DNA from: Spirosomataceae bacterium TFI 002
GTDB taxonomy: Bacteria > Bacteroidota > Bacteroidia > Cytophagales > Spirosomataceae
Direction of reading: 5' to 3'
DNA length: 64,000 nt
Assembly (NCBI GenBank): GCA_900230115.1
Contig: LT907983.1
Coordinates: 4,198,774-4,262,773 of the forward strand
Below are positions 1 to 19,446 of the stretch, piece by piece (within the stretch, counting starts at the first letter, position 1; every line of letters begins with the position of its first letter). The notes below the pieces were generated by a model. That model was given only the letters and a program-made list of their open reading frames with translations, was not told the DNA's origin and made no database searches. The position numbers were made by a program, and so were the translations under genes.

Positions 1-49
1 CATACCAGAGATAAATTTTAGTTATCTGGCAAACCCTAAACCTAAAGGT

Positions 50-3000
50 GTGTGCTTAAGGCACTTAGTCTTTGGGATTTTTGTGTTTTTACTTTTTTCA
101 ATATCCACAATAGCTCAGAACCGTCAAATTGAATTGGTTACTAATGGTGACTTTAGTGATGGCAGAAACGGATTCTCTTCAGATTATAATTGGAATTCAT
201 CGAGCAATGGTGGCTATGACATCGATAATGACCCTAATGATGTAAACTCAAATTATTTTTCTTTTTATGATCATACCACTGGTACTAGTTCGGGAAGGCT
301 TATAGCGGCAAACGGCTCAACAAATGCAAACGACGATGTTTGGAAGAATAATATAAATGTAACAAGCGGTCAAACATACACTATGACCGTATGGATAAAA
401 TCAATATATGCTACCAATCCTTCCTCTATTGGATGGTTTGTTGGTGGAAATCAAGTCGGAACAACGGTGGTGGCTAATAATAATTGGCAACAACTAACAG
501 TTACCTATACAGCCAACTTTACTGGACTCGCAACATTTTCTATAAGAGCTACGAGTGGAGAGTCGTCGGGAAATGCTTTTGCACTTGATGATGTATCTAT
601 AACAAGTGAAGTATCACCCACCTGCTCTGGAACTTATTATGATACAGGAGGGAACAATAGCAATTATTCGAATAATGAGGACTATACCCAAACTTTTTGT
701 GCAGGTGCTGGATCAAATATTAGATTCAGTTTTAACCAGTTCAATGTTGAAACAAATTGGGACTTTTTAAGGATTTATGACGGGATGTCTACTTCTGCAA
801 ATAGTCTTGGAACGTTCACCGGAACTAATAGCCCCAATACAGTTACTTCTAGTACGGGGTGTTTAACTTTTAGATTTACTGCAGATAATATATATAATAG
901 AAGTGGATGGCGTGCTGCTATTTCTTGTGTGCCTGATCCTGGTTGTGGCAGTATTAGTTCAGTAGTCATAAATGATTTAAGTGGTGGAGCTGATATTGAT
1001 ATTACAGGAGGTGCAACTGTATATGCAGGCCAACTTCCTAATAACTGGAACATTGAAGCAACAAAAACGGTAGGGACTGGGAGTATTAGATTTGAAGTAA
1101 CAGGCGATAATGTTCAGTCAAATGTAGAAAATGCTGGTCCTTATAGAATGCCCAATGATAACGATCCGTTGAATTGGGGACCAGGAACTTATAACATAAA
1201 AATAACTCATTATAGTGGTAACTCGGGGACTGGTAATATTTGTGACGTAGAGCAGTTCACATTAATTATTGACCAATGTGCCATTAATAACTTTCAAGTA
1301 AGTTCGAATTCAACAGTATGTACTGGTGCAAACTTGAATTTAACATCATCGGGTGGTGGAACTGGTGCTACTTATAATTGGGTAGGACCTAACAGTTTTA
1401 CTTCAACTCAGCAAAACCCAACTCTTCCTAGTGTTGGTGCAGCCGCATCTGGAGTTTATTTTGCAACAGTCACTAATTCAGGTTGCTCAGCAACAGCGTC
1501 CACTTCGGTAAGTGTGACTAATGCTCCTTCTGTTTCAGTAACTAGTCAAAATGCCAATTGCGGATTAAATAATGGCGAAGTTACTTTCACTTTTCCTGAC
1601 GAATCAAGTAGAACAAATATAGAATTTAGTACCAATGGTGGTTCTTCTTATCCTACTTATGTAAGTGATGGAATTGGAAGTACAACTGTTACAAACCTAG
1701 GGCCTGGAACATACGATTTATGGACAAGGTGGGGAAACGATGAATGCCCTGTTGATTTGCCAGATGTTACCATTATAAGAGCCACAGGGACGTTGACCAA
1801 AACTGCCGATCCTACTGCTTGTTCGGGAGCGGCAACGCCACTTTCTGTTTCTTTACAAAATGCTGTTGGTTCTACCACTTATTCTTGGAGTAATGGTCTA
1901 GGGACAGGAGCAAATAAGACGGTTAGTCCCAATTCAAGTATTACATATTCTGTAACAGGAGTTGATAGTCAGGGTTGTGTTGGTACAGCCAATATCACAG
2001 TTAATGTAAATGCACTTCCAGTTGCCACTGCCACAGCTAATTCTCCGGTATGCTCAGGAGGAACAATAAACCTTAATTCTTCTGGAGGAAATTCTTATTC
2101 ATGGGTTGGTCCAAATTCTTTTAGTTCTGGATTTCAAAACCCCAATATTACCATTGCTTCAAATGTAAATGCTGGAACTTATACAGTCACAGTTACAGAT
2201 GCAAATAGCTGTTCATCTACTGCAGCGGTTAATGTTTTAATAAATTCTGGTCTTACAGTTACTGCTTCTACACCTGCAAGCAATATATGTGCAGGGACAG
2301 ACTTAAACTTATTTTCATCGGGAGCGACATCTTATTCTTGGAGTGGTCCTGGTGGTTTTTCTTCAAATAGCCAAAACCCTGTTATCACAAATGCAACAGT
2401 ATCAAGATCTGGAACTTATACCATTACAGGTAGTAATGCTCTAGGTTGCACAGCTTCGGCAACTACTTCCGTTGCAGTTACAATTAACTCACCCACAGCA
2501 AGTAATGACGGTCCGAAATGTGAAGGCAGTACAATTAACCTATCAGCAGTAGGCGGAAACGAATATGTTTGGAGTGGACCTAATGGTTTTACATCGAATA
2601 TTGCAAACCCATCAATATCAAATGCTAATCTTAGTCATGAAGGGATATATACAGTAACTGTTAGTATTTCGGGAGCATGTCCTGTAACTGCAACTACAGA
2701 ACTTAGCATGCATGCCTTGCCTAATATTTTGGTTTCTAATACAGGGCCAGTGTGCTCGGGAGGTAATATCACTTTGAATGCAAGTGGTGGAACTTCATAC
2801 GTTTGGAGTGGACCAAATGGATTTAGTTCTTCAAATCAAAATCCAAGTATTTTTAATGTAAATAATTCAAAGACAGGTTCATATACAGTTACAGTTACGA
2901 ATGCTTCAGGCTGTACTGCTACCGCTACCACCGTAGTGGGATTGTCGTTTCCGAGTTTGACAGTATCTAGCGATACAGTTTTATGTGCAGGTGGAACAAT

Positions 3001-6000
3001 TAACTTACATGCAACTGGTGCTGTATCTTATGCTTGGACAGGGCCTAACTCGTTTTATGCAGCAGCGGCATCAGTTAGTATTCCAAGTGCAAGTTCATCA
3101 GAAAATGGAACATATACAGTTACAGTTAGTAATTCGCTAGGGTGTTCTGCTACGGCAAGTGTGGATGTTAGTATTTTAAATGTTGCTACGCCTATTGTTT
3201 CTAATGCTCCTGTATGTACCGGAGATTCTCTAAAAATGGAATTACCTGGCTGGACTACTTATTCATGGTCGGGTCCAGCTGCATTTAGTGCTGCGGTTGA
3301 AGATCCTTTTATTGCAAACCCAACAACAAGTAATAGTGGAGTTTACAGTGTTACTGCGTCTATTGCTGGTTGCACAACCACAGTTACTGCAAACCTAACT
3401 GTCCGGGCATTGCCCATTCCAACAGCGAGTAGTAATCAGCCAGTATGTGTAGGCACAACGCTTAATTTAACTAGTGCCTCGGCATCTAGTTATTCGTGGA
3501 AAGGGCCCAATGGTTTTACTTCATCTGTTAGGAATCCTAATATTGCTGTTACTGATACTTTGCCACAAGGGACCTACACACTCGTTGTTAGCAATTCATT
3601 TGGATGTTTAGACTCTACAACTCACGATGTCGATGTATCTTTTGTAGTTCCTACAGTGAAACCTTCGGGAAGGGCTTGTTTAAGTGCTTCATATCCGTTG
3701 ACAGCGGGTGGCGGAGCTTCATATTACTGGACTGGGCCAAATTCATTTAGCTCAGGAAATCAAAATCCATCCATTTCTAATATCAGCTTAGCGAAACAAG
3801 GTGTTTATTCTGTTACCATTACCAATGCAGATGGTTGTACAGCTTCGGTTACAACTAGTTTAACGGTTTCTATTCCTGTTGCCACAGCTTCCAGTAGTTC
3901 ACCAGTATGTGAGGACGATATTTTAGTTTTAACTTCTTCTGGCGGAGCTTCATATGATTGGAGTGGACCGCGTTCTTTTGCTTCTAATATTCAAAACCCG
4001 AATATCAGTATTGTAAAACAAAATCAACAAGGAGTTTATACCGTTACGGTTACCGACTCAGTAGGTTGTGTAGCAACTGCCACTACAGATGTGGTTATTA
4101 ATAAAAACACCAACGGTAGAATAAATGACAATGGACCTATTTGTGAGGGACAAAATCTTGAATTAGATGGTAGGGGAGGAGACGTGTATTATTGGTCAGG
4201 GCCTAATGGTTTTTTATCTTCATTAGAAGATCCAATTATTAATAGTGCGTCTGCTGCTGCAAATGGAACTTATACTTTACAAGTTACGGACTCGAATGGC
4301 TGCTCAGCAACTGTAACATCTAATATCACTGTTTATCCTAGTCCAATCGCCAATCCTACAGCTACAATTGCAGATATCTGCGTTGGGCAGACCTTAAATT
4401 TACTTTCCACCGTAAATGATCAATATAGTTGGTCGGGACCTAATAACTTTAACTCAAATCAACAAAATCCTATTCGCACAAATGCGACAACCAACATGTC
4501 GGGTGTATACACCCTGACTGTAACTGATATTCCAGAAAATTGTTCAGCTTCGGCTAGTGTAGCTATTTCGATTAATACCATTCCACCGCCTCCGGTCAGT
4601 CCAGCAGTATCTCGATGCGGCACAGGAACTGTTACACTAACGGCCTCTGGCTGTTCTGGTGTTTACCAGTGGTATGATACCAACTCTAGTTCTACTGTGT
4701 TAGGAACAGGAAGTAGTTTTACAACACCTTCTCTGAGTTCAGGTCGATCTTATTATGTAAACTGTACAGAATTTACGTGTCCAAGTAGTACACGAAGACA
4801 GGTTCAAATTACCATTTTAGCAAATCCTACAGCTACTGCAACTGTAACTCAAAGGCATTGTGTAGGTTCAACTGCGAAGTTTACTGGTGGTGGAAATAAT
4901 GTGAGTTCATATGCGTGGTCTGGTCCTTTAAGCTGGACAAGCAACGAACAATCTCCAACAAAATTGATAAATGGAACAAATAATGGCGGAACTTATACCA
5001 TTACAACAACAAGGTCAAATGGTTGTACTGCAACAGCGACAACAAACCTTCAAGTAATTACAAATTGTGATAACATTTGCGGAAGCCAGTATGTCATTAT
5101 TCCTACCAACCCACTTTCATGTGGATCAACCAATGGACAAGTTTATATTTCTGCTACTAACAGTTATGAGACAAGTTTGGATGGAGTAAATTGGACTCGT
5201 GGCTCTGTTACCTACAATAATCTAGGAGTTGGTAATTATTACTTTTATGTAAAAGATTACGCAACTCAAAACATTTGTAAGAATGTAAGTAATACATTGG
5301 TTTCAACTACTTCGAGTTATTTTACGGGACAATCAGTAACTGCTGCAAGTGATTGTTATTCAGCAAATGGTTCAATTACACTTCAAGGAGTACAGCCAAC
5401 AGATGATGTAAGCTGGCTTGCAACCTTGAAAGCTCCAAAAGTTCCTGTTTCTAGTTTAAGTCCTTCAAACACCATAAGTAACTTAACCCCAGGGAAATAT
5501 TATGTGAAAGTTTCTCGTGCAAATGATTTCTGTTATGCAGAGAGATATGTGGATGTTCCTAACAATGGTACTTCGTGTACTAGTAATACCTTCTGTGATG
5601 ATAGTACTGTGCCAAATCTTTTTCCAAATGGAGATTTTGGGTCTGGAGCAAATGAAAATGGTCCTGTTTTAATAGAAACTCAATATGGGTATTCTAATTA
5701 TACTTGTTATGCTCCATGGGATGGTTTTTACTCCATAACTAATAATACAGATTGTGATGGAAATGGAGGAAGAGCATTCTCAAATCAAGCAGTTGGTTCA
5801 TGGGATGTGTTAACAGAAGATCATACTGTGGGAGATGTCAACGGGTATATGATGGTTATAAATGCCGGTTATACACCTAATATAGTTGTTGAGAAACTTA
5901 TTGGTGATTTATGTCCCAATACGCAATATAACTTTACAGCATGGATGAGGAACATTTCTCCTGCCTCAACCATACAGCCAGATGCAGCATTTATCATAGA

Positions 6001-9000
6001 TGGGGTAATTAAAGCGACATCAGGGGCTGTAACAGGAAACCAATGGAAACAGGTGGGATTCTCCTTCAAGACTGGAGAAAACACTACAGAGGCTCTTTTT
6101 GCATTGAGAAACATTGCACCAGGAGGATTTGGTAATAACTGGATTCTTGATGACGTTAAAGTGAGCAAGTGCCCACTAGAAATAAATTTGAGTGGAACTA
6201 CAATCGCCTGTTTAGGCGGTAATAGTGAAGAAATAGAAGCAACTATCAACGACCCATATGAAGAATACACTTATTTCAAATGGGAAAAAAGTGATGATAA
6301 TGGAGCGACATGGCAAAATGTTACAACGGTAGCACAAGGGAGTTATGTTTCTGGGAACATGAATGTAGACCTAACGCTTCCAACTCCAATAGTTTCAGCA
6401 TTGAGTGGCAGAATTTATAGAATTAGATTGGCTACCACAGCAGCGACTATTGATGATCCACAATGTTCGGTATATAGTGCTCTTACACAAATTATTGTTC
6501 CTCCTATTGAACTGAATGTGACTCTTCCAATTGAAAAATGTATTGGTTCGGGTAGTGTTGCACTTACAGCAACTGCGAGTGGAGGTACAGCTCCTTACTC
6601 TTATTTATGGAGGAATTCAGTGGGTAATACACCAACAGTAAATGTAAATCCAAGTGCTACAACTACTTATGTTGTAGAAGCCTTTGACGCTGACAATTGT
6701 CCAGCAATTGATTCTGTTATAGTAACAGTCAAAGATCAGCCAACACTCACTGTTACTATAGAAGAAGATTCTGTTTGTTTAAACGGGACAACTCATATTA
6801 TAGCTCATGTAGAAGGCGGTTCAGGTAATTTTCAGTTTACATGGTACGAGTCTGCAGATGGTTCAACCAACTGGACTACGATAGCAGGCGTAACAGATTC
6901 GGTATATTCTCCTAATACCTCAGTAGCAGGACAAAAATACTTTAGAGTCTTTGTAGAAGATTTAACATTCGATTGTAATGATGCTACTTCAAATCCAGTA
7001 TTGTTTACGGTAGTCCCACTGCCATCGGTTAACATAAACCTAAGTGCATCTCCAGTATGTATTGGCGGAGCAGTAAACCTGACTGCTAATGTGACCTCAG
7101 GAGCAGGAGCTATTGAATACCAATGGTATAGGTCAACGAATAATACAACATTCAATGCCCTAGCTGATGATACACTTGGAACCTATTCGCCCAATACTGG
7201 AACAGCAGGAACGACTTATTATGAAGTAGAAGCAGTGGCATCCGCATCAGGATGTACAGCGGCACGCTCTTCAAGTGTAGCGGTACAAGTGCTTCCTAAT
7301 TTCGATGTAGATTTGCTAGTAAATAATGCAGTAGTGTGTATTGGAGGCTCAGCGATATTAACCGCAGATACGATAAGTGGAACAGGCAATATAACTTACC
7401 AATGGTTTAACTCTTCCGATGGTGTGAACTTCTCATCTATAACAGGAAGTACATCAACATTAACAGCCCCAACAGGCACAACGGGAATAACTTACTACCA
7501 AGTACAAGCAACTGCCTCAGGAGCAGGTTGTGGTTCTGCAACATCAACACCAACATCAGTAGAAGTATTACCAGTATTTGATGTAGATGTAACAGTAAAT
7601 AACTCACCAATTTGTATTGGAGGAAGTGTAACGTTAACCGCAGATACTTCCAATGGATTAGGCTCAGTGAGCTACCAATGGTTCGGTTCATTGGATAATG
7701 TAACGTTTAACCTTATTGGAGGCGAAACCAATTTATCCTATAATCCATCCACGACGAATTCAGGAACGACATATTACCGAGTAGAAGCAACAGCCTCAGG
7801 TTCAGGTTGCGGAACAGCAGTATCGGATGTAGTACCAGTCGTAGTATTACCAGTATTCTCAGTAGATGTAAATCCAAGTTCGAGTGTAGTGTGTGTGGGA
7901 GGAACAGTAAGCTTAGATGCAGATACAACGAATGGAACAGGAACAGTAACCTATCAGTGGCAACAGTCGACCAACAATGTAACCTTTAGCAACATAGCTG
8001 GAGCTACAGGAGAAACCTATAACCCATCAACTGCAACAGCAGGAACATTGTATTATAGAGTAAGAGCGACAGCAAGTGGCTCAGGTTGTGGCACAGTAAC
8101 CTCGGCAGGAGTATCAGTAGAAGTACTTCCAGTGTTTGAAGTATCAGTAACACCAAGCAATACTACTTTATGTTTGAATGGTTCATCAGTGATTACAGCC
8201 ACAACAGTAAGTGGAACAGGAACAATTACATACCAATGGTTTAACTCTACAGATAATACGACATTTAGCCCAATATCAGGAGCAACAGGAGCAACAACAA
8301 CAGCACCAACGACTGCGGTAGGAACGACCTATTATAGAATAGTAGCAAATGCCAGCGGAAATGGTTGTGGGAATGCAACTTCAGCAAGTGCGGTAGTGAG
8401 AGTATTACCAGTATTTGATGTAGAAGTAAGTTTAAATAATGCCGTAGTATGTATAGGAGGAAATGTAACACTTACAGCCGATACGGTAAATGGAACAGGA
8501 ACAGTTACATATCAATGGCTAGAGTCCACAGACAATGTTAGCTATACAGCGATATCAGGAGCCACTGGCGTTACTTATACAGCCAATACAGCTTCAGAAG
8601 GCCTAAAATATTATAGAGTTCAAGCAACAGCCTCAGGTTCAGGATGTGGCACAGTAGAGTCAGATGAAGTATCAGTAGAAGTATTACCTGTATTTTCGGT
8701 AGCAGTAAATCCAAGTTCAAGCACAGTATGTGTGGGAGGAGCAGTCACACTAGATGCAGATCCAACGAATGGAACAGGAACCATAACTTACCAATGGCAA
8801 GAGTCAACTAATAATTCAAGCTTTACCAATATCAGTGGAGCAACGAACGAAATATATACCCCATCAACAAGTGCAGAAGGAACAACATACTACAGGGTCA
8901 TTGCCTCAGCAACAGGAGCAGGTTGTGGAAGTGTAACATCAGGAAGTTCCATGGTACGAGTACTGCCAGTCTTTGATGTAGACATTGCGATCGATAATGC

Positions 9001-11938
9001 AGTGCTATGTTTAGGAGGAAGTGCAGTCATCACCGCCGATACAAGCAGTGGAAGTGGAACAGTAAGCTATCAGTGGTATAATTCAACAAACAATAGCACA
9101 TTTACAGCAATCTCAGGAGCAACAGGGGATTCCATCATAGTACCAACGAACGCAGAAGGAACTATTTACTACCGAGTAGTAGCAACAGCCAGCGGCGTAG
9201 GTTGCGGAAATGCTACCTCAGCAAGCGGAAGTGTAGAAGTATTACCAGTATTCGATGTAGATATTTCGGTTACTAACTCAATCGTATGTATTGGCGGGGC
9301 AGTAAACTTAGGAGCCTCACCAGTAAACGGAACAGGGACGATCACTTATCAATGGTTGGAGTCACCTGACAATAGCACATTTACAGCAATCTCAGGAGCA
9401 ACAAATGTTAACTATGTACCCAATACTGCAACAGCAGGAACAAAATATTATCAAGTACAAGCGACAGCCTCAGGATCAGGATGTGGAACAGTAGAGTCAG
9501 ACGTCGCAACGGTAAGAGTATTGCCGATTTTCTCAGTAGATGTAAACCCTAGCTCAAGTGTGGTGTGTCTAGGAGGAGCAGTAACGCTAGATGCAGATAC
9601 AACAAACGGAACCGGAACAGTAACTTATCAATGGCAAGAGTCAACTAATAATTCAAGCTTTACCAATATCAGTGGAGCAACGAACGAAACATATACCCCA
9701 TCCACAGCTACATTAGGAACAAGGTATTACAGAGTCATTGCCACAGCAACGGGAGCAGGATGTGGGAGTGTAACATCAGGAAGTGTATCAGTAGAAGTAC
9801 TACCAGTTTTCGATGTAGCTATCGTAGTTGATAATGCGATAGTTTGTTTGAATGGAGCAGTGACGCTCACCGCCGATACGATCAGTGGATCTGGTAATGT
9901 AACTTACCAATGGTACAACTCATCAGACGGAAGCACATTTGCGGCCATATCTGGAGCAACAAGCAAAACATTAACAGCACCCACATCAAGCCTAGGAGTG
10001 ATGCATTATCAAATCATGGCCAATGCCTCAGGAGCAGGTTGTGGAGATGCAACTTCAGCCTCAAGTACAGTAACGGTAGAGCCACAATTGATTGTAGAGC
10101 TAGATCAAACATCAGCAGAAATCTGTTTGAATGAATCACTGACATTGCAGAGTACAACGAGCCATGGAGTAGGAACCATTACTTACCAATGGCAAAGTTC
10201 ACCAGATGGATCAACATGGACCAATATTGTAGGTCAAACAAATGACAACCTATCAGTAAGTACCAGCACAGCAGGATTATTTTACTACCGAGTATTAGCC
10301 TTTGCAAGTGGAGTTGGTTGTAATGATGCCACAGCAGTACCTACGATAGTACGCATACATGATTATCCAACAGTAACGAGAACATTTGTATCTCCACTTT
10401 GTGAGCCCACAAACGGAACGATCACATTTACATTTAGCGATGAGCCAGCAATTGACTCCATTCAATTTAGCTTGGACAATGGCTTAACATATCCATATAC
10501 CACCAATGACGGAGCAGGAACGTATACTATTAATGGCTTAGGAGAAAATGTGTACGAACTAAGTGCCCAATACAAAGGAGGTTTATGTCCAGTGTCGATG
10601 ACGAATGTGACGATGGAAGAAAGGCCAGCACCAAGCGTGACTACCACTTATGTAGACCCCACTTGTACGACTGATAATGGTACGATCACATTTACATTCC
10701 CAGATGAGTCCACAAGAACTGATATCAAGTTCAGTAGAGATGGCGGAACGACTTATGCAAGTAATATCGCAGACAACTCAGGTTCATATACGATGAATGG
10801 AGTAGCACCAGGAATTTATAATTTATTCGCCATATGGGGGAATGATGAATGTCCAACAGACCTAGGCAGTGTAACCCTCACAGATCACCCAACACCAATA
10901 ATCACAGTATCAGCAGATACCGTATTGTGTGAAGGACAATCTTACACAATTTCAGTTTCAAGCACTGGAGGAGATAATCCAATAACCTATACTTGGGACA
11001 ATGGCCTTGGCAATGCATTGAGTCATACAGTAAGTCCATTGGTAGATACCTATTATGTGGTTTCGGTTGTGGATTCTAATAATTGTACTGTAAGCGACAC
11101 CGTTTTTGTTGAAGTCAATCCAGTACCAGTAGTAACAGCAACAGGAGGAACATTCTGTGAATTCGATACATTAGAATTAAGCTCAACAGGCGTAGGGATA
11201 TTTGAGTGGACGGGTCCAAATACATTTACAAGTTCAGATCAAAATCCACAAATAGCGAACGGACAGCTCACAGATGCAGGAATTTACACAGTAGTATTAA
11301 CCAATAATTTCTCTTGCCAAAGTACAGCCACAGCAGAGCTTATTGTAAATGATACCCCACCATCCCCATCAGTTGTGGAGGGCGAAAGATGTGGTCCTGG
11401 AGTTGTAAATCTTTCAGCAACTGGCTGTAATGGAAATATTGAATGGTACGATAGCCAATTTTCTTATTCATCGGTATCCTCTGGCACAAACTTTGCATCA
11501 TCAAATCTAGATGAAAGTAAATATTTCTTTGTGAATTGTACAACTACCTTGAATTGCGAAAGTATTGAAAGAGTGCCAGTATTGGCAAAGGTAAATGAGT
11601 TATCAGTAGCTCAGCTTTTACCAATTAACTCTACTTGTTTTGGAAATATAGCCATAAACAACGGTCAACTAATCGCAACTAGGTTTGAGGATGGCGAAAC
11701 ATTCTCATTCAGTGAAGGAAGTACCTACAATAGCAGTACGGCAACAAGTTTGGCAACCATACCAGCAAATGGCCTACTCTCACAAAGTATAAATAACCCA
11801 ACAACGCTCACGCAATCATACACAGTAAGAGTGAATAGTGTAGATGGCTGCCCAAGAGATATCGTTGTGGAATACCAAGAGTCTTGTGAAGAGTGTAAAC
11901 CTTATTGCGAACCTTCATCAATTGAACGAGTAAAATAG
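50..11938 (+). CDS. Giant secreted cell-surface adhesin-like protein (3962 aa). Architecture: signal peptide, CBM4_9/galactose-binding-like domain, CUB domain, about 14 short SprB-type repeats, a second CBM-like domain, about 13 Ig-like ~93-aa repeats, a Cys-rich C-terminal domain shared with the next gene
   Basis: Uninterrupted 11.9-kb ORF. N-terminus MCLRHLVFGIFVFLLFSISTIAQ looks like a signal peptide (GTG start at 50). There is no in-frame stop between position 2 and 50, so the true start may lie upstream of the window. Recurrent motif CxGxxLNLxSSGGxxYxWxGPNxFxSxxQNPxIxNxxxxxxGxYTVTVTxxxGCxxTA fits SprB-type repeats. A CUB-like segment (CSGTYYDTGGNNSNYSNNEDY...LRIYDG...) is present. NGDF...DDV segments look like CBM4_9. 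Confidence 0.85.
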   Translation: MCLRHLVFGIFVFLLFSISTIAQNRQIELVTNGDFSDGRNGFSSDYNWNSSSNGGYDIDNDPNDVNSNYFSFYDHTTGTSSGRLIAANGSTNANDDVWKNNINVTSGQTYTMTVWIKSIYATNPSSIGWFVGGNQVGTTVVANNNWQQLTVTYTANFTGLATFSIRATSGESSGNAFALDDVSITSEVSPTCSGTYYDTGGNNSNYSNNEDYTQTFCAGAGSNIRFSFNQFNVETNWDFLRIYDGMSTSANSLGTFTGTNSPNTVTSSTGCLTFRFTADNIYNRSGWRAAISCVPDPGCGSISSVVINDLSGGADIDITGGATVYAGQLPNNWNIEATKTVGTGSIRFEVTGDNVQSNVENAGPYRMPNDNDPLNWGPGTYNIKITHYSGNSGTGNICDVEQFTLIIDQCAINNFQVSSNSTVCTGANLNLTSSGGGTGATYNWVGPNSFTSTQQNPTLPSVGAAASGVYFATVTNSGCSATASTSVSVTNAPSVSVTSQNANCGLNNGEVTFTFPDESSRTNIEFSTNGGSSYPTYVSDGIGSTTVTNLGPGTYDLWTRWGNDECPVDLPDVTIIRATGTLTKTADPTACSGAATPLSVSLQNAVGSTTYSWSNGLGTGANKTVSPNSSITYSVTGVDSQGCVGTANITVNVNALPVATATANSPVCSGGTINLNSSGGNSYSWVGPNSFSSGFQNPNITIASNVNAGTYTVTVTDANSCSSTAAVNVLINSGLTVTASTPASNICAGTDLNLFSSGATSYSWSGPGGFSSNSQNPVITNATVSRSGTYTITGSNALGCTASATTSVAVTINSPTASNDGPKCEGSTINLSAVGGNEYVWSGPNGFTSNIANPSISNANLSHEGIYTVTVSISGACPVTATTELSMHALPNILVSNTGPVCSGGNITLNASGGTSYVWSGPNGFSSSNQNPSIFNVNNSKTGSYTVTVTNASGCTATATTVVGLSFPSLTVSSDTVLCAGGTINLHATGAVSYAWTGPNSFYAAAASVSIPSASSSENGTYTVTVSNSLGCSATASVDVSILNVATPIVSNAPVCTGDSLKMELPGWTTYSWSGPAAFSAAVEDPFIANPTTSNSGVYSVTASIAGCTTTVTANLTVRALPIPTASSNQPVCVGTTLNLTSASASSYSWKGPNGFTSSVRNPNIAVTDTLPQGTYTLVVSNSFGCLDSTTHDVDVSFVVPTVKPSGRACLSASYPLTAGGGASYYWTGPNSFSSGNQNPSISNISLAKQGVYSVTITNADGCTASVTTSLTVSIPVATASSSSPVCEDDILVLTSSGGASYDWSGPRSFASNIQNPNISIVKQNQQGVYTVTVTDSVGCVATATTDVVINKNTNGRINDNGPICEGQNLELDGRGGDVYYWSGPNGFLSSLEDPIINSASAAANGTYTLQVTDSNGCSATVTSNITVYPSPIANPTATIADICVGQTLNLLSTVNDQYSWSGPNNFNSNQQNPIRTNATTNMSGVYTLTVTDIPENCSASASVAISINTIPPPPVSPAVSRCGTGTVTLTASGCSGVYQWYDTNSSSTVLGTGSSFTTPSLSSGRSYYVNCTEFTCPSSTRRQVQITILANPTATATVTQRHCVGSTAKFTGGGNNVSSYAWSGPLSWTSNEQSPTKLINGTNNGGTYTITTTRSNGCTATATTNLQVITNCDNICGSQYVIIPTNPLSCGSTNGQVYISATNSYETSLDGVNWTRGSVTYNNLGVGNYYFYVKDYATQNICKNVSNTLVSTTSSYFTGQSVTAASDCYSANGSITLQGVQPTDDVSWLATLKAPKVPVSSLSPSNTISNLTPGKYYVKVSRANDFCYAERYVDVPNNGTSCTSNTFCDDSTVPNLFPNGDFGSGANENGPVLIETQYGYSNYTCYAPWDGFYSITNNTDCDGNGGRAFSNQAVGSWDVLTEDHTVGDVNGYMMVINAGYTPNIVVEKLIGDLCPNTQYNFTAWMRNISPASTIQPDAAFIIDGVIKATSGAVTGNQWKQVGFSFKTGENTTEALFALRNIAPGGFGNNWILDDVKVSKCPLEINLSGTTIACLGGNSEEIEATINDPYEEYTYFKWEKSDDNGATWQNVTTVAQGSYVSGNMNVDLTLPTPIVSALSGRIYRIRLATTAATIDDPQCSVYSALTQIIVPPIELNVTLPIEKCIGSGSVALTATASGGTAPYSYLWRNSVGNTPTVNVNPSATTTYVVEAFDADNCPAIDSVIVTVKDQPTLTVTIEEDSVCLNGTTHIIAHVEGGSGNFQFTWYESADGSTNWTTIAGVTDSVYSPNTSVAGQKYFRVFVEDLTFDCNDATSNPVLFTVVPLPSVNINLSASPVCIGGAVNLTANVTSGAGAIEYQWYRSTNNTTFNALADDTLGTYSPNTGTAGTTYYEVEAVASASGCTAARSSSVAVQVLPNFDVDLLVNNAVVCIGGSAILTADTISGTGNITYQWFNSSDGVNFSSITGSTSTLTAPTGTTGITYYQVQATASGAGCGSATSTPTSVEVLPVFDVDVTVNNSPICIGGSVTLTADTSNGLGSVSYQWFGSLDNVTFNLIGGETNLSYNPSTTNSGTTYYRVEATASGSGCGTAVSDVVPVVVLPVFSVDVNPSSSVVCVGGTVSLDADTTNGTGTVTYQWQQSTNNVTFSNIAGATGETYNPSTATAGTLYYRVRATASGSGCGTVTSAGVSVEVLPVFEVSVTPSNTTLCLNGSSVITATTVSGTGTITYQWFNSTDNTTFSPISGATGATTTAPTTAVGTTYYRIVANASGNGCGNATSASAVVRVLPVFDVEVSLNNAVVCIGGNVTLTADTVNGTGTVTYQWLESTDNVSYTAISGATGVTYTANTASEGLKYYRVQATASGSGCGTVESDEVSVEVLPVFSVAVNPSSSTVCVGGAVTLDADPTNGTGTITYQWQESTNNSSFTNISGATNEIYTPSTSAEGTTYYRVIASATGAGCGSVTSGSSMVRVLPVFDVDIAIDNAVLCLGGSAVITADTSSGSGTVSYQWYNSTNNSTFTAISGATGDSIIVPTNAEGTIYYRVVATASGVGCGNATSASGSVEVLPVFDVDISVTNSIVCIGGAVNLGASPVNGTGTITYQWLESPDNSTFTAISGATNVNYVPNTATAGTKYYQVQATASGSGCGTVESDVATVRVLPIFSVDVNPSSSVVCLGGAVTLDADTTNGTGTVTYQWQESTNNSSFTNISGATNETYTPSTATLGTRYYRVIATATGAGCGSVTSGSVSVEVLPVFDVAIVVDNAIVCLNGAVTLTADTISGSGNVTYQWYNSSDGSTFAAISGATSKTLTAPTSSLGVMHYQIMANASGAGCGDATSASSTVTVEPQLIVELDQTSAEICLNESLTLQSTTSHGVGTITYQWQSSPDGSTWTNIVGQTNDNLSVSTSTAGLFYYRVLAFASGVGCNDATAVPTIVRIHDYPTVTRTFVSPLCEPTNGTITFTFSDEPAIDSIQFSLDNGLTYPYTTNDGAGTYTINGLGENVYELSAQYKGGLCPVSMTNVTMEERPAPSVTTTYVDPTCTTDNGTITFTFPDESTRTDIKFSRDGGTTYASNIADNSGSYTMNGVAPGIYNLFAIWGNDECPTDLGSVTLTDHPTPIITVSADTVLCEGQSYTISVSSTGGDNPITYTWDNGLGNALSHTVSPLVDTYYVVSVVDSNNCTVSDTVFVEVNPVPVVTATGGTFCEFDTLELSSTGVGIFEWTGPNTFTSSDQNPQIANGQLTDAGIYTVVLTNNFSCQSTATAELIVNDTPPSPSVVEGERCGPGVVNLSATGCNGNIEWYDSQFSYSSVSSGTNFASSNLDESKYFFVNCTTTLNCESIERVPVLAKVNELSVAQLLPINSTCFGNIAINNGQLIATRFEDGETFSFSEGSTYNSSTATSLATIPANGLLSQSINNPTTLTQSYTVRVNSVDGCPRDIVVEYQESCEECKPYCEPSSIERVK
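620..950 (+). other. CUB-like domain within the giant protein
   Basis: CSGTYYDTGGNNSNYSNNEDYTQTFCAGAGSNIRFSFNQFNVETNWDFLRIYDGMSTSANSLGTFTG...LTFRFTADNIYNRSGWRAAISC matches the CUB consensus (C..Y......Y.n...C......i.l.F..f..E...D.l.iyDG). Confidence 0.5.
1300..4600 (+). repeat. Array of about 14 tandem short (70-75 aa) SprB-type/Ig-like coding repeats
   Basis: Repeated units such as CTGANLNLTSSGGGTGATYNWVGPNSFTSTQQNP...GVYFATVTNSGCSATAST, CSGGTINLNSSGGNSYSWVGPNSFSSGFQNPNITIASNVNAGTYTVTVTDANSCSSTAAV and others occur at 210-230 nt spacing. Confidence 0.8.
6500..10110 (+). repeat. Array of about 13 tandem Ig-like ~93-aa (~279-nt) coding repeats. A three-copy ~837-nt super-repeat spans 7567-10080
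   Basis: Units begin LPVFDVD/LPVFSVDVNP/LPVFEVSV and contain VCIGG..TLTADT.NGTGT.TYQW...YYRV.ATASGSGCG. Unit starts are at 7567, 7846, 8125, 8405, 8683, 8963, 9241, 9521, 9800 and 10080. Units 3-4-5, 6-7-8 and 9-10-11 correspond one-to-one. For example, nt 8797-8865 and 9636-9704 are near-identical (caatggcaagagtcaactaataattcaagctttaccaatatcagtggagcaacgaacgaaa.atatacccca). Confidence 0.85.
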
Positions 11939-11986
11939 TTTTCAAATTTTATAAATAAATAGTTTACAATTAATTTTTAGTTTATC

Positions 11987-14932
11987 ATGAAAAACAATTA
12001 TCTAACCAATTTACGAATGTCCTCGAGTGGGGGTATGCGATTTGGATGGTTTTTCATCGGGATTGTCACTTTTCTAATGAGCCAAACTTCCTTTGCTCAA
12101 ACTGTGTGTAGTCCTGAGTTGAAATTTACCGTTCAATCCACACTAAACACCGCAGAGGGTGTAGATGACGCAACAATGCGTATAACAGGTTTGGATCCTG
12201 CAGTAGACTACGTAGTAGCCTATGAACTGGGAACAAGCTTTACAGGTAGTATCGCTAATGGAGTTGCTTACAGCACACTTACTAATGGCGTTATTGCTAA
12301 TAATCTGGTTAATCCAACACTTGCCGCGGGTCAAGAATACGTGGTTAGAGTTTATCTACCAGATAATTCTTGTTATGCTGAAAAAGTATATGTTTTACCA
12401 AAAGCATACTTTAATGACAAACCAGATAACACTGACTTGGAAATTACAATGACCAAAAGTGCTGATGCAGCAAATCCAGGTGATATTGTAACAGTAACCG
12501 TTGTTGTAACAAACAATAATAGTGCAACTGATAATCCAGGATACAACATCATTCAAGCTGATAATGTTGAAATAACTGTTACAGCACCTGGTGGTGGAGC
12601 ACTTACATTTAACCCTACTGCAACGGCATCGCAAGGAACTTATGATGGGACCTCTGTTTGGTCTGTTGGTAGTTTGGCCCCTGGTCAAACAGAAACTCTT
12701 GTTTTGTCTTACACTATAAATGAAAGAGGTATTTATGAAATAGCTTCTGAAGTTACAGCTGCAGATGGTGATGATTTGGATTCATCTCCTTCTACAAGTA
12801 GTATCATTGAAGATGATTATACAACACAATGTTTGTCTACTCCTTTTGACTATTGCGATGATGATGAATTCGAATTTCGTTTAGCGAATCCTGCAATGTA
12901 CAGTCAAATTAGATATTTGAAAAATGGTACACCTATTACTATTACTGCCGGACAATCTGTTGCTGGTGAATATAGAATACATGCTGATGGATATTTGATT
13001 ATTGAGTCTGTAGGAACTTATAGTTACGAATCTACTGATCCTACTGCTTGCGGATTTGAATATTGTTGTCCAATAATTGTTGAAGAAGGTGAAAAGCCAG
13101 ATTTAGCACCTGTTACTCCAGTATCTATTTGCTTTGAATCTCCAATTGCTGATGTTGTAGTAATTGAGAACATGAATGCTGCAAACGATGCTGCTCCTGG
13201 TTCTGACTTTGATATTGATAGAGGAAATCTTGTATACCAATGGTTCTCTGATGGTGGTACTGGAAATCCTATTACAGGGAGTGATAGCCTTTTGGGTTAT
13301 ACTTCTTTAACATTGAATTTTGATGCTCTTCCAGCAGCTCCAGGTACTTATACTTACCGTATTGTTGGAATGGACGACTTGCACCAAACTTGTAAGGATA
13401 CAACTGAATTTGTAGTTGTAATACAAGATATTGAAAAGCCAATTGCTGCTGCAAACTCGCCAATTTGCGAAGAAGAAACACTTGAGTTGACTACAACCAA
13501 TATGGCTGATTATCAGTCAGGTGCACCATTTACTTTCACTTGGTGGAATGAAAACGCCAATGGCGGTGCTTGGACAGCGACTGGAGATAGCGTAGGTAGA
13601 ACTGATGCATTGCCAGCAATGTCTGATGAATACATCGTTGAAGTTTCTGTTGCTTACACAAACTTTACTCCAGCTCAAACCGTGACATGTAGTAAAACAG
13701 ATACTGTGACTGTACTTATTAATCCATTACCACCACTTCCAGATCCTATAGACTATGTTTATTGCCAAGGAGTTACTAATGCAGAAATGGATTCATTAAG
13801 ATTAAACAACGAAGATGTTGCATATACCATTAGATGGTATCATGAATCAGATACTTCTGTGATTGATTATTCTTACCCAAGCGTAAGACCTTTCCCATCG
13901 TCTTTAACAGCGGGATCTGATGTATGGCAAGTGTCATTCTATAATGAAGGAACAACTTGTGAATCACATAGAGCTGATCAAACCGTTACAATAGATACTA
14001 AGCCTGATATGCCAGTTGTTAATAACTTTGCCTTCTGTGAAGCAGGTTTAGCTACTGACCTTACTGCAATTGCAGAAGCGGGACATTCCTTGATATGGTA
14101 CGCAACGGATAGTGTATCTACTGTGCCAGATACGGTTGTGGCGTTTACGCCTCCACCTTCAACAGCAACAGTTGGTATTACTTCATATTTTGTGTCACAA
14201 TACAATACAACTTCAGGTTGTCAGTCATTTATCAATGAATTTGAGGTTCATATTCTTGATAGACCAGATGGCTTAGCATTTGCTGTTCCTGAATATTGTG
14301 TGGATCAAACTACAGGTATTCAGTCACTTGATAACCATTTGACAGTTTCACCTGCAAGTTCTAGTGCACCTACTCCAAGCACGTCGTATAGTTGGGATTA
14401 CCCAGGACATGGAACTCCTGCAACTCCTCCTACGCCGACAACTACAACAGTGGGAGCAACTTATGGTACTGTAACAGAAATATTTACTTATGATTATGTT
14501 CCTGCGGATAACTTCCAAGTTGTAACTATCGATTGTCCTTCAGATGTGCTTCCAGTGCATGTTGTAGTGAATCCAAAACCAGCAGCAGAAGTAATTGCAA
14601 TCAGTGCACTTTGTATTGGTGACGAAGACGTAGATAACGGAACGCTTATTCTTACAAGGTATGAGAACACAGATGTTCTTGAGTGGAATAGAGGAGCTGC
14701 TTACAGTAATTTAGCAGCAGATAATTACATAATTGAAAGCCCTGTTGCTGAAGGAACGCACGGTGGTGTATTTGCATCAACGCTTCCTAACCCTGATACA
14801 AGCCAAGATTACTTCGTAAGAATTACGAACATCCACGGTTGTCAGCAAGATATACCAGTTACCTTAGATGGTAAAGATTGTATCTGTCCTGGTGGGTATT
14901 GTGAGCCTGCATCTATCACACCTAATTTCTAA
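11987..14932 (+). CDS. Large secreted surface protein (981 aa) with a DUF11-like domain, a CCPIIVE-motif domain and a C-terminal domain homologous to the C-terminus of the giant upstream protein
   Basis: Signal-like N-terminus (alternative start at 12035, MRFGWFFIGIVTFLMSQTSFAQ). The DUF11-like segment is DLEITMTKSADAANPGDIVTVTVVVTNN...GTYDGTSVWSVGSLAPGQTETL (about 12435-12800). The C-terminus ...ALCIGDEDVDNGTLILTRYENTD...GCQQDIPVTLDGKDCICPGGYCEPASITPNF aligns with the upstream protein's ...STCFGNIAINNGQLIATRFEDGE...GCPRDIVVEYQESCEECKPYCEPSSIERVK. Confidence 0.8.
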   Translation: MKNNYLTNLRMSSSGGMRFGWFFIGIVTFLMSQTSFAQTVCSPELKFTVQSTLNTAEGVDDATMRITGLDPAVDYVVAYELGTSFTGSIANGVAYSTLTNGVIANNLVNPTLAAGQEYVVRVYLPDNSCYAEKVYVLPKAYFNDKPDNTDLEITMTKSADAANPGDIVTVTVVVTNNNSATDNPGYNIIQADNVEITVTAPGGGALTFNPTATASQGTYDGTSVWSVGSLAPGQTETLVLSYTINERGIYEIASEVTAADGDDLDSSPSTSSIIEDDYTTQCLSTPFDYCDDDEFEFRLANPAMYSQIRYLKNGTPITITAGQSVAGEYRIHADGYLIIESVGTYSYESTDPTACGFEYCCPIIVEEGEKPDLAPVTPVSICFESPIADVVVIENMNAANDAAPGSDFDIDRGNLVYQWFSDGGTGNPITGSDSLLGYTSLTLNFDALPAAPGTYTYRIVGMDDLHQTCKDTTEFVVVIQDIEKPIAAANSPICEEETLELTTTNMADYQSGAPFTFTWWNENANGGAWTATGDSVGRTDALPAMSDEYIVEVSVAYTNFTPAQTVTCSKTDTVTVLINPLPPLPDPIDYVYCQGVTNAEMDSLRLNNEDVAYTIRWYHESDTSVIDYSYPSVRPFPSSLTAGSDVWQVSFYNEGTTCESHRADQTVTIDTKPDMPVVNNFAFCEAGLATDLTAIAEAGHSLIWYATDSVSTVPDTVVAFTPPPSTATVGITSYFVSQYNTTSGCQSFINEFEVHILDRPDGLAFAVPEYCVDQTTGIQSLDNHLTVSPASSSAPTPSTSYSWDYPGHGTPATPPTPTTTTVGATYGTVTEIFTYDYVPADNFQVVTIDCPSDVLPVHVVVNPKPAAEVIAISALCIGDEDVDNGTLILTRYENTDVLEWNRGAAYSNLAADNYIIESPVAEGTHGGVFASTLPNPDTSQDYFVRITNIHGCQQDIPVTLDGKDCICPGGYCEPASITPNF

Positions 14933-15028
14933 TTCAATCCCAGAATTGATAAACTATTTTGAAGAGAAGTTGACCTCGGTTGACTTCTCTTCTTAAAAAT
15001 AGAACAATCCCCAACTTTAAAAATATAA

Positions 15029-16978
15029 ATGATTTTAAACTCTACAGCAATGCGAATTATAAGAGCATGTTTGTTTCTCTTCTTGGCTGTAGCTTCATTT
15101 TCAATCCATGCACAAGATTGTATAAAGCCAATCTATAAAATAACGTGGAATAACGTTTCTCAACCTAACCTAAGTGATGGAAGCATCACAGTCTATCAAA
15201 TCCAAAGTGCCACTCATTACGAATTACTTTTTGGTAATGAAGAAGAATTTAATTTTGCGGAAGCAGTTAAGTTCAAGCCTGGAGAAGACAAAATAGAAAT
15301 TAAAGGGCTCTCTAACCCAGCTGGTACTGACACCTACAAAATTAGAGTTTATAATGGCGAAAACTGTTACAGAACAGATGTGGTAAAACTATCACAATTA
15401 TATTTTGCCAAAGATCTTGAGAATACAGCTGTTGAACTAATACAAGGTGTGGATAATCCTTCTCCAAAAGTGGACGATGTCGTCACTTTTACTACACTTG
15501 TTCAAAGCAAAGGAACATCAAAAGTTGAAAATCTAGAAGTAAAACAGTTTTTAACCGAAAGCTTAGAAGTAATATATTTCTACGCTGACAAAGGAACATA
15601 TTCACAATATGCCAGAACTTGGAATATTGGAGATCTCAAAGGAGGGCAATCCATTAAGCTTGTTATAAGAGCTAGAGTGAAAAGTACTGGTCTTTCCTAC
15701 CTGACATCCTACATATCTGGAATTAATAAATTTAATATTATATATGGTCAATCCATTCCTACTCAAAGTTCAGAGTATTCAATAGCTGCAACAAACTGTG
15801 TTTCGGTTCCGATTCAAATTAAGCAAAATCAAATATACAGTATCCGACTGCCAACATACAAGGGAGTTACTTGGTACTACAAAGATTTAGCAGGGAACTT
15901 CTCAGAAATAGATGAGTTTACAAACCCTTCCATTGCTGAAGTAAATAAAGATAGCTCACTTAGCATTAAGCAAGGCGGAGAATACACTTTTACCAAAAAA
16001 GTAGATGAATGTACATTCAATAGTTGTTGTCCTGTCATTGTTGAAAGCTGTGCAGGGCCTCCTATTATAGTGGATTCGGTTTATTGTAACAAGAGCGTAG
16101 ATAGCTACAACATTGTTGTGCGTCTTCAAAATGACTCTTGGAGCGTAGTAGAAAAGGTCTATTATGCTATTGCAAATATTAGTTTTCCCGTTTTAACGAA
16201 CTTCCTGAGAAGAATAAATGCATTGCCTTTGACATCCAGTTCAGGTTATGTGACTTCACTGGGAAACAGTACTTATAAAATTGAAAACATACCTGCTTTT
16301 ATGCCAAATGTCACTTTGGTTTCAACCGATATGACTGGTCAGTGCCGAACAGTAAAAGTTGTAAACGCTCCCAATTGCCAACAGGCAATTATAAATGAAC
16401 CACAACTGGCAGAAGCCACCATGTATTATTTACCTGGTCAAACAATGCCAAACTTAAGAGTAACTAACCAACCAAAAGGATTTAAAACACTTTGGTTCAA
16501 AGATGAACTTGGGCAAAATGAATTAGATAAAGGGAAATCATTTGTACCGGAAGAGCCTGGTAAATATTACGTCGCATTTAAGGATAAAAAAACTGGAGCT
16601 TTAAGTCAATTGACTATTGCGACGGTAAGAGACATGACCGAAGATCAACCTGGTCAGTTTGTGGATGTGGTTGTATGTGATTGTAAAAATCCAAATATGA
16701 TTCCAACAGGAAAAATTGAGGACTATACGGTAACGAAGGCGTACCCCAACCCAGCAAATGATATTTTGAATATACAGTATAGAGTTCCAGAAGGCTCAAA
16801 AACAGTAAGTTTATTTATATTTAATATCAATGGAAGGCAAATGGCCTCCTACGAATTAGATAAAAATAAAACAGAAGTGAAGGTAAATGTCTTTGATTGG
16901 ACAGATGGCCTCTATGTTTACAATATCATAACTGATGGAGAAAAGCGAGCAACACAAAAGATCATTGTGCGGCATTAA
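15029..16978 (+). CDS. Secreted protein (649 aa) with a DUF11-like domain, a CCPVIVE-motif domain and a T9SS type-A C-terminal sorting domain
   Basis: N-terminal signal (MRIIRACLFLFLAVASFSIHAQ, alternative start 15050). A DUF11-like segment lies at about 15410-15720. The motif ...GGEYTFTKKVDECTFNSCCPVIVES is shared with the previous gene (GTYSYESTDPTACGFEYCCPIIVEE). The C-terminus KAYPNPANDILNIQYRVPEGSKTVSLFIFNINGRQMASYELDKNKTEVKVNVFDWTDGLYVYNIITDGEKRATQKIIV is a typical Por_Secre_tail CTD. Confidence 0.85.
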   Translation: MILNSTAMRIIRACLFLFLAVASFSIHAQDCIKPIYKITWNNVSQPNLSDGSITVYQIQSATHYELLFGNEEEFNFAEAVKFKPGEDKIEIKGLSNPAGTDTYKIRVYNGENCYRTDVVKLSQLYFAKDLENTAVELIQGVDNPSPKVDDVVTFTTLVQSKGTSKVENLEVKQFLTESLEVIYFYADKGTYSQYARTWNIGDLKGGQSIKLVIRARVKSTGLSYLTSYISGINKFNIIYGQSIPTQSSEYSIAATNCVSVPIQIKQNQIYSIRLPTYKGVTWYYKDLAGNFSEIDEFTNPSIAEVNKDSSLSIKQGGEYTFTKKVDECTFNSCCPVIVESCAGPPIIVDSVYCNKSVDSYNIVVRLQNDSWSVVEKVYYAIANISFPVLTNFLRRINALPLTSSSGYVTSLGNSTYKIENIPAFMPNVTLVSTDMTGQCRTVKVVNAPNCQQAIINEPQLAEATMYYLPGQTMPNLRVTNQPKGFKTLWFKDELGQNELDKGKSFVPEEPGKYYVAFKDKKTGALSQLTIATVRDMTEDQPGQFVDVVVCDCKNPNMIPTGKIEDYTVTKAYPNPANDILNIQYRVPEGSKTVSLFIFNINGRQMASYELDKNKTEVKVNVFDWTDGLYVYNIITDGEKRATQKIIVRH

Positions 16979-17035
16979 AAATATATAGCATCATTAATTG
17001 AGAACTGAGTTAGTAAAGCCGAAAGGCCAAAAAGT

Positions 17036-17065
17036 AGCTCCCTGAAAAGGGAGTTATTTTTTTGT
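17036..17065 (+). terminator. Rho-independent terminator after the surface-protein cluster
   Basis: ctccctgaaaagggag hairpin followed by ttattttttt. Confidence 0.6.
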
Positions 17066-17133
17066 CAACTTTTCTGTGAGCATCTTTGTTTGGTATGGGA
17101 AGATCGCTTGTTTTGCAGGCTTAAAAATAGAAT

Positions 17134-18519: not shown

Positions 18520-18527
18520 TCTAATAT

Positions 18528-19271: not shown

Positions 19272-19446
19272 AATTTCACCTTTTGGAATTTAAGTTTTTG
19301 AAATCAAATAATTTTTGAAAACTTAAAAAAACAGTTTTTAGTACTTCTTCGCTTTTTCTTAATGTTTGTTTTTAATAATTCAATAAGAAAAGATGTTGGC
19401 ATTGCAACTCACCCACTTTTTACGTCAAATGATTGATGTTTGCTTA

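Follow-up and report, generated by a model that had tools for sequence, protein, structure and literature searches.

Intragenic tandem repeats can be homogenized by gene conversion, as in the streptococcal alpha C/Rib and M proteins, and repeated domains can also be duplicated as multi-domain blocks, with the super-repeats of the titin A-band being one example. Domain repeats usually expand by several domains at once and in the middle of the array, and the size of the duplicated cassette is family-specific, e.g., seven domains in nebulin (Björklund, Ekman & Elofsson 2006; PMC1553488). Two bacterial systems are particularly relevant here. First, the Periscope Proteins (SasG, Rib, Sgo_0707) carry repeats that are often 82-100% identical, with 80% protein identity used for repeat detection, and the number of repeats differs between strains; one end of these proteins is anchored at the surface, and the other presents a functional (ligand-binding) domain; high identity of neighboring domains is normally disfavored through misfolding (Whelan et al. 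2021; PMC8201768). Second, the grappling-hook protein GhpA of Aureispira sp. CCB-QB1 (PDB 9flp and related entries) and the SprB-type giant adhesins of the type IX secretion system (T9SS) are giant Bacteroidota proteins with a signal peptide, and GhpA has dozens of 'slightly varying' immunoglobulin (Ig)-like repeats that form a long, hollow, heptameric stem, the GhpA-type hooks being of uniform length (10.1101/2024.01.29.577165). Here, we describe a related array in Spirosomataceae bacterium TFI 002 (GCA_900230115.1), within a stretch of 64,000 nucleotides (nt) of contig LT907983.1 (positions 4,198,774 to 4,262,773; hereafter, the window, to which all coordinates refer unless noted otherwise). 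The array is located in a giant open reading frame (ORF) at 50-11938 on the forward strand, which encodes 3,962 amino acids (aa) according to the ORF list and translation. We consider that its part at 7289-10075 is probably an ancient super-repeat of three Ig_7 domains whose number of units has stayed fixed and which has been patched by short, in-register gene conversion.

An earlier reading of the same letters, the original prediction, had instead interpreted the array as the result of a recent duplication of triplet blocks that would have left long direct repeats prone to RecA-mediated change and to assembly collapse, with length or antigenic variation of an adhesin as the outcome. Block duplication of repeated domains is documented and conversion among repeats is textbook knowledge; the array described below represents a bacterial instance of the former, with a cassette of three domains.

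A period-three super-repeat of Ig_7 domains

Units 3-12 of the array stand in perfect register as 93-residue rows from position 7565, each of them in frame and exactly 279 nt long (7565-10354), consistent with the predicted recurrence of unit starts every 278-280 nt; units 1 and 2 are 276 nt (92 aa) each. When the region 6900-10300 was compared to itself, 837 nt was the best of all offsets (59.0% identity), followed by 279 (55.5%) and 558 nt (53.7%). That is, the higher-order block identity expected from a self-comparison was indeed present above the single-unit periodicity. Mean nucleotide identity between units was 0.68, 0.655, and 0.663 at lags of three, six, and nine units, respectively, vs. 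0.57-0.60 at all other lags. Further, the partition of units 2-11 into class A (units 3, 6, 9), class B (units 4, 7, 10), and class C (units 2, 5, 8, 11) ranked first among 2,100 partitions at the nucleotide and protein levels alike, which bears out the predicted grouping of 3/6/9, 4/7/10, and 5/8/11 over neighboring units and adds unit 2 to class C. The period-three, higher-order repeat is therefore real and statistically solid. Nucleotide identity within classes was 63-71% for A, 72-82% for B, and 59-66% for C, vs. 54-68% for pairs of different classes. At the protein level, adjacent units were 49-66% identical and only single unit pairs (4/10 and 7/10) reached 80-84%. The motifs proposed as class signatures were also recovered, with ATASGSGCGTVESD being found in units 6 and 9 and RVIA.ATGAGCGSVTSGS in units 7 and 10; of the three units named for GCGNATSAS, 5 and 8 contain it, whereas unit 11 reads GCGDATSAS.

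A neighbor-joining tree of the units with bootstrap resampling supported the clades {4,7,10} (98-99%), {7,10} (90-99%), {6,9} (73-81%), {2,11} (66-78%), {5,8} (65-72%), {2,5,8,11} (51-69%), and {3,6,9} (30-64%). With 5-8, 6-9, and 7-10 as sister pairs (bootstrap 65-99%), units 5-6-7 and 8-9-10 (8123-8959 and 8960-9796) are favored as the youngest pair of blocks, which shifts the phase of the original prediction by about one unit. Accordingly, of the three tandem copies of about 837 bp with three Ig domains each that had been proposed, the 837-nt repeat itself is genuine, but the proposed blocks omitted unit 2 and were out of phase. In the original phase, the blocks are located on the forward strand at 7565-8401 (block 1; units 3, 4, and 5 of classes A, B, and C, with three Ig_7 matches), 8402-9238 (block 2; units 6, 7, and 8), and 9239-10075 (block 3; units 9, 10, and 11). 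Unit 2 (7289-7564, forward strand; 92 aa), which is nearest to unit 11 (66% nucleotide and 62% aa identity), represents a partial first copy of the super-repeat. Once it is counted, the super-repeat extends over 7289-10075 and comprises about 3.3 copies.

The units at the edges, all on the forward strand, are diverged. Units 0 and 1 (6734-7288, with unit 1 at 7013-7288) lie outside the super-repeat, and unit 0 shares 62-66% identity with its positional orthologues (described below) vs. 27-33% with the remaining units of the array. Unit 12 (10076-10354) shares 39-43% aa identity with units 2-11 and 30-34% with units 0 and 1, and its counterparts in the two orthologous loci share 64% identity. 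Domains that resemble those n positions away more than their neighbors, together with diverged edge units, are also what characterizes the super-repeats surveyed previously (PMC1553488); the array described here differs from these in being bacterial (Bacteroidota) and without exons, in having a cassette of three Ig_7 domains, and in showing later in-register gene conversion at a unit count that is constant in three genera. Tandem Repeats Finder reported no repeat on 1-20000, since the units are too diverged for its identity threshold and the longest period it considers is shorter than 837 nt.

In terms of fold, each block of 279 aa contained three stretches matching PF19081 (Ig_7, 'Ig-like domain CHU_C associated') with 61-67 bits, above the Pfam gathering cut-off of 27.3 bits. 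For units 6-8, an AlphaFold2 model based on an alignment of 24 sequences showed three successive all-β domains whose boundaries coincide with the unit boundaries (mean predicted local distance difference test, pLDDT, 93.4; predicted template modeling score, pTM, 0.75). Both the profile score and the β-sandwich model thus place the array among the Ig_7 tandem arrays, with the individual units being predicted by the model to be Ig_7 β-sandwich domains. Foldseek searches of the model against PDB returned tandem Ig and fibronectin type III (FN3) proteins, including phage Hoc, Salmonella SiiE, and GhpA, and the best full-length superposition was with a GhpA stem fragment (9flw_A; query TM-score, TMq, 0.60).

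Constant unit number and exchange between copies

The unique middle region of the giant protein (5000-6733), used as the query against one genome per species, revealed two orthologous loci, one in an Arcticibacterium metagenome-assembled genome (MAG) (L001; 75% aa identity in the middle region; ORF of 3,986 aa) and one in a chromosome-level Jiulongibacter MAG (L002, OZ252236.1; 72% aa identity; ORF of 3,999 aa). The three proteins align collinearly at 52-60% identity, with indels of only 1-8 residues (differing start codons aside), and each array comprises 13 units. That is, based on the three genomes compared, the number of units has remained unchanged across three genera since their lineages split, which speaks against the proposed length variation. 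The class structure is also shared: the period-three partition ranked first of 2,100 in L002 and 11th of 2,100 in L001, same-class units were more similar than different-class units between L001 and L002 (57.3% vs. 49.6%, p = 2e-4), and class sharing between the window and L002 was equally significant (p = 2e-4). Classes that are common to these genomes indicate that the cassette structure is older than the split of the lineages, whose orthologues are saturated at synonymous sites (proportion of synonymous differences, pS, 0.70-0.83). No additional copies suitable for comparison were found. A search with one block (279 aa) as the query returned only fragments of up to 51% identity and no close relative; a metagenome scan with the unique middle region yielded, apart from one fragment of 23 residues, no orthologue that exceeded 38% identity over a substantial stretch; and exact-protein look-ups for the giant protein and four neighboring genes gave no match, hence no same-species copy. 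A contig of 3.5 kb (L071) encodes a middle-region protein that is 74% identical to that of the window and is too short to span the 93-aa array.

Within each genome, the internal units are closer to units three positions away than to their positional orthologues. For units 4-10 of the three genomes, the nearest of all 39 units was a unit of the same genome three or six positions away in 19 of 21 cases, and same-class identity within a genome was 64-67% vs. 51-58% between positional orthologues. Between L001 and L002, positional orthologues (56.9%) were not closer than non-positional units of the same class (57.3%). In contrast, units 0 and 12 of L001 and L002, as well as their units 1 and 2, paired with their positional orthologues instead. 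Unit 1 of the window is 28-29% identical to unit 1 of L001 and L002 (mutually 53%) vs. 48-51% to units 4, 9, and 10 of the window itself, which suggests, from these sequence comparisons, that it may have been replaced by an internal-type unit in the lineage of the window.

The footprints of exchange between copies were also directly visible as patches of exact identity. Only two exact repeats of at least 25 nt were found in 6700-10400 of the window. The longest, of 61 nt, connects unit 7 (8792-8852) with unit 10 (9629-9689), both on the forward strand, at an offset of 837 nt, and when the 50 mismatches between the two units were permuted 200,000 times, a run of this length arose in only 11 cases (p = 5.5e-5). 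The near-identical stretch of about 70 nt that had been noticed before falls here, although its partner had been placed 2 nt off: 8797-8865 matches 9634-9702 at 68 of 69 positions, whereas the proposed 9636-9704 matches at 16 of 69. The second repeat, of 35 nt, connects unit 8 of class C (9090-9124) with the adjoining unit 9 of class A (9369-9403), again on the forward strand, at an offset of 279 nt; no permutation out of 200,000 reached this length (p < 5e-6), and the two units are otherwise 61% identical. The 35-nt patch marks cross-class conversion between adjacent units. The two runs span about 20 and 11 consecutive codons, respectively, without a synonymous difference.

Similar exchange was observed in the orthologous loci. 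In L002, a tract of 526 nt (13140-13665 of that locus) shares 95.8% identity with its counterpart 843 nt further downstream (13983-14508), with exact runs of 234 and 182 nt that are separated by a 51-nt island with 11 mismatches, and with sharp edges toward flanks of 65% and 75% identity. It extends over about two units of a three-unit cassette (units 5-6 vs. 8-9; 99% and 98% identical at the protein level) and, being partial and mosaic, it looks like a recent gene-conversion event rather than the duplication of a whole block. The L002 array, unlike that of the window, currently holds a good substrate for recombination. The exact runs in L001 were shorter (41 nt at offset 837; 29 and 26 nt at offset 279), and the latter two (14624/14903 and 12944/13223) join adjacent units of different classes, as the 35-nt patch of the window does, indicating that small cross-class conversion patches recur in this protein family. 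Homogenized internal repeats, edge repeats that escape homogenization, and sharply bordered mosaic tracts are shared with the concerted evolution of other intragenic repeats; the process seen here differs in being weak and patchy, in following the register of the super-repeat (837-843 nt) rather than acting on neighboring units, and in leaving the copy number unchanged.

Based on these results, we favor a scenario in which the cassette of classes A, B, and C would have arisen through duplication of a multi-domain block in an ancestor shared with the Arcticibacterium and Jiulongibacter lineages, and the number of units would have stayed fixed thereafter. Copies in register, 837 nt apart, would then occasionally swap short segments by non-reciprocal homologous recombination (gene conversion), with partly concerted evolution of the internal units of each genome as the result. 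The last such exchanges in the window would have been small (61 and 35 nt), and the copies would by now be too diverged for efficient unequal crossing-over.

Alternatively, it is possible that blocks were born and lost independently in each lineage by unequal crossing-over, with rod length being under selection and without a role for gene conversion. Such a process would account for internal units being nearest to same-genome units three positions away and for the L001 and L002 positional orthologues being no closer than other units of the same class, and the uniform length of GhpA-type hooks makes selection on length plausible (10.1101/2024.01.29.577165). However, all three lineages would need to have returned to exactly 13 units. 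Moreover, the tracts are partial, i.e., about two units with a mismatched island of 51 nt in L002 and 61 and 35 nt in the window, and the 35-nt patch links adjacent units of different classes at offset 279 while leaving the length unchanged. Hence, we consider this alternative unlikely.

Several observations weigh against the gene-conversion scenario that we favor and should be kept in mind. The comparison comprises three genomes that are all genus-level apart, with saturated synonymous sites, and two of the three sequences are metagenome-assembled, so that, in principle, the near-identical tract of L002 could have been generated artificially during assembly or consensus building. Same-class identity between the window and L001 was not above different-class identity (55.6% vs. 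55.6%). Within the window, the period-three signal at synonymous sites is weak (p about 0.02; mean pS 0.564 for same-class vs. 0.607 for different-class pairs; the partition ranks 44th of 2,100) and is carried mainly by class B. In addition, repeated gain and loss of blocks under selection for length could also render paralogues more similar than orthologues, and the selective reason for both the fixed length and the period of three is something that we only infer.

With respect to this reason, the array may serve as a rod or spacer whose defined length is under selection, and the cassette layout may permit duplication while neighboring domains stay dissimilar (about 55% identity), thereby limiting misfolding between domains. 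Consistent with this, neighboring units at 49-66% identity conform to the norm of dissimilar neighbors (PMC8201768). A stronger version would be that a GhpA-like and possibly multimeric stem of fixed length has the three-domain cassette as its structural period. In-register conversion and the constant unit count would then reflect selection on rod geometry, and the array would be a 'molecular ruler' with a period of three Ig_7 domains. While we regard this version as quite unlikely, it would, if true, make the array more than a frozen duplication history and give the super-repeats of titin and nebulin a bacterial counterpart.

Divergence of the copies

Synonymous differences between units of the same class are near saturation (pS 0.39-0.65; synonymous divergence, dS, 0.55-1.5, by the Nei-Gojobori method), and the ratio of non-synonymous to synonymous divergence (dN/dS) of 0.17-0.52 indicates purifying selection between them, which is at odds with the proposed antigenic variation. 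It might be argued that an ancient triplication followed only by class-specific purifying selection, with no recombination since, is sufficient to explain the array. In favor of this view, pS is nearly saturated and the same-class signal of the window is mostly non-synonymous (proportion of non-synonymous differences, pN, 0.11-0.36 within vs. 0.20-0.40 between classes). Nonetheless, the absence of recombination is difficult to reconcile with the runs of about 20 and 11 codons lacking any synonymous difference, the closer relatedness of paralogues compared to positional orthologues, or the exact runs of 234 and 182 nt in L002, making this explanation very unlikely.

Divergence also bears directly on the age of the blocks. 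Blocks 1 and 2 share 67.4% nucleotide and 64.5% aa identity, blocks 2 and 3 share 71.6% and 71.0%, and blocks 1 and 3 share 67.4% and 65.2%; even in the best phase (units 5-6-7 vs. 8-9-10), the values are only 72.5% and 72.4%. With blocks that are 67-72% identical at the nucleotide level and the dS values given above, the duplication is not recent. Neither are there long direct repeats as proposed, with a single exact match of at least 30 nt at each offset (61 nt at 837; 35 nt at 279). RecA-dependent recombination loses efficiency steeply once the stretch of perfect identity is shorter than roughly 50-100 bp, and at 70-80% sequence identity, exchange is suppressed by mismatch repair. Short exact repeats and diverged blocks thus make the array a poor substrate for unequal crossing-over, and they would not be collapsed by short-read assemblers.

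These data are relevant for the model of the original prediction, that is, a recent triplet-block duplication with long direct repeats recombining through RecA and length or antigenic variation as in a Periscope Protein. The period-three structure on which it was built is real, recombination between copies has clearly occurred in this protein family, and the 61-nt match at offset 837 could, on rare occasions, allow 837 nt to be gained or lost in frame. However, this match has no second of at least 25 nt at the same offset, the blocks are old by both identity and dS, selection between copies is purifying, all three genera have an equal number of units, and repeat identity is below the 80% used for the detection of Periscope repeats (PMC8201768). 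Collectively, these features render the model highly improbable. The array does share with the Periscope Proteins that it is a long Ig-like/E-set array with short linkers in a bacterial surface-type protein and that its repeats recombine within the gene, and it probably forms a rod as well; it differs in the identity of adjacent units (49-66%) and of blocks (65-72%) and in having 13 units in all three genomes. For the latter reasons, i.e., repeat identity below 80% and an equal number of units in the window, L001, and L002, membership in the Periscope Proteins was rejected.

An assembly artefact, such as a mis-join or collapse, is hardly credible given that, beyond the general risk of repetitive genes, nothing specific points to it, no exact repeat is longer than 61 nt and the blocks are at most 72% identical (ordinary reads and k-mers resolve such a region, with no stretch being similar enough to collapse), the ORF is unbroken over 11.9 kb, and the locus is collinear with, and has the same unit count as, two independent assemblies, one of them chromosome-level.

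The main value of these results is, therefore, a correction: what appeared to be a recombination hot-spot and an assembly trap is an old, diverged array whose copy number is stable across three genera. It follows that the gene model and the assembly are trustworthy and that the locus does not belong on a list of length- or phase-variable adhesins. The array also offers a small and clean example of how giant, GhpA/SprB-like Ig-repeat proteins of the Bacteroidota grow by multi-domain cassettes, followed by short in-register conversion patches at a fixed number of domains, which fits the idea that the length of the rod is selected while neighboring domains are kept dissimilar.

The giant protein and its surroundings

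The giant protein comprises, from its N terminus, a signal-like hydrophobic segment, a CUB domain (aa 204-289; Pfam), an array of Ig-like units of 77-79 aa, the middle region, the 93-aa Ig_7 array, and C-terminal SprB-like and Ig modules. Pfam matched Ig_7 in 14 stretches of the whole protein (E 2.5e-100, 329 bits), and Ig_2 in addition. Its best solved relative by sequence is GhpA (phmmer against PDB; 9flp_A, E 1.6e-295 over 11 stretches), although this score stems mainly from the N-terminal 77-79-aa array, with the 93-aa array alone reaching 50 bits (E 8.6e-13). The protein resembles GhpA and the SprB-type adhesins in its size, its signal-like segment, and its many varying Ig-like repeats, but it differs from GhpA in having a CUB domain as its N-terminal module, in having no T9SS C-terminal sorting domain that was detected, and in being followed by genes for DUF11/Ig_7 proteins rather than by homologues of PorP/PorE (GhpB/GhpC). 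By sequence, it would thus be a GhpA/SprB-like Ig-repeat protein and not an orthologue of GhpA, and a role as an adhesin is plausible by likeness to these proteins. Membership in GhpA proper was rejected because no sorting domain was detected and no PorP/PorE homologues were present among the downstream ORFs.

Specifically, Pfam and NCBIfam scans of the whole giant protein detected no Por_Secre_tail, CHU_C, or other T9SS sorting domain, and neither an anchor nor a sorting domain at the C terminus, the N terminus being the one with the signal-like segment and CUB. The protein ends in …CEECKPYCEPSSIERVK, and two ORFs with DUF11 follow it within 11700-16978. The first downstream ORF (11987-14932) encodes a protein with DUF11 and Ig_7 domains, and an ORF of about 984-990 aa is found at the same place, directly after the giant gene, in both L001 and L002. 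The second DUF11 ORF (15029-16978), which was counted as the third downstream gene, encodes DUF11 together with Por_Secre_tail and is the only one of the two DUF11 ORFs to carry a sorting domain. A further downstream ORF encodes an AAA_2/ClpB_D2-small ATPase.

The N-terminal array (1300-4600; aa ~420-1520) consists of about 13 Ig-like units of 77-79 aa with the motif W.GP...QNP. Identity among these units is only 27-53%, and there is no higher-order period, every lag having 37-40% identity. An additional module of about 85 aa, with the pattern …C…NG.(V/I)TFTF.DE……(F/I).FS…GG..Y………G.Y.L…(W/Y).(N/G)..CP…, occurs in three copies (1538-1800, 10379-10640, and 10643-10900), i.e., a single copy near aa 500 and a tandem pair at aa 3445-3620. 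These modules had no Pfam match above the gathering threshold, and weak, sub-threshold SprB matches are located elsewhere in the protein. The copy near aa 500 and the second C-terminal copy, about 9 kb apart, share about 50% identity (BLOSUM62 local score 246). Finally, the coding strand of the region 8001-10000 is strongly AT-skewed (+0.218), and the GC content there is raised to 0.43 vs. about 0.37-0.39 elsewhere, both of which probably reflect the Thr/Ala/Gly/Ser-rich composition of the Ig_7 domains (ACN/GCA/GGA codons).

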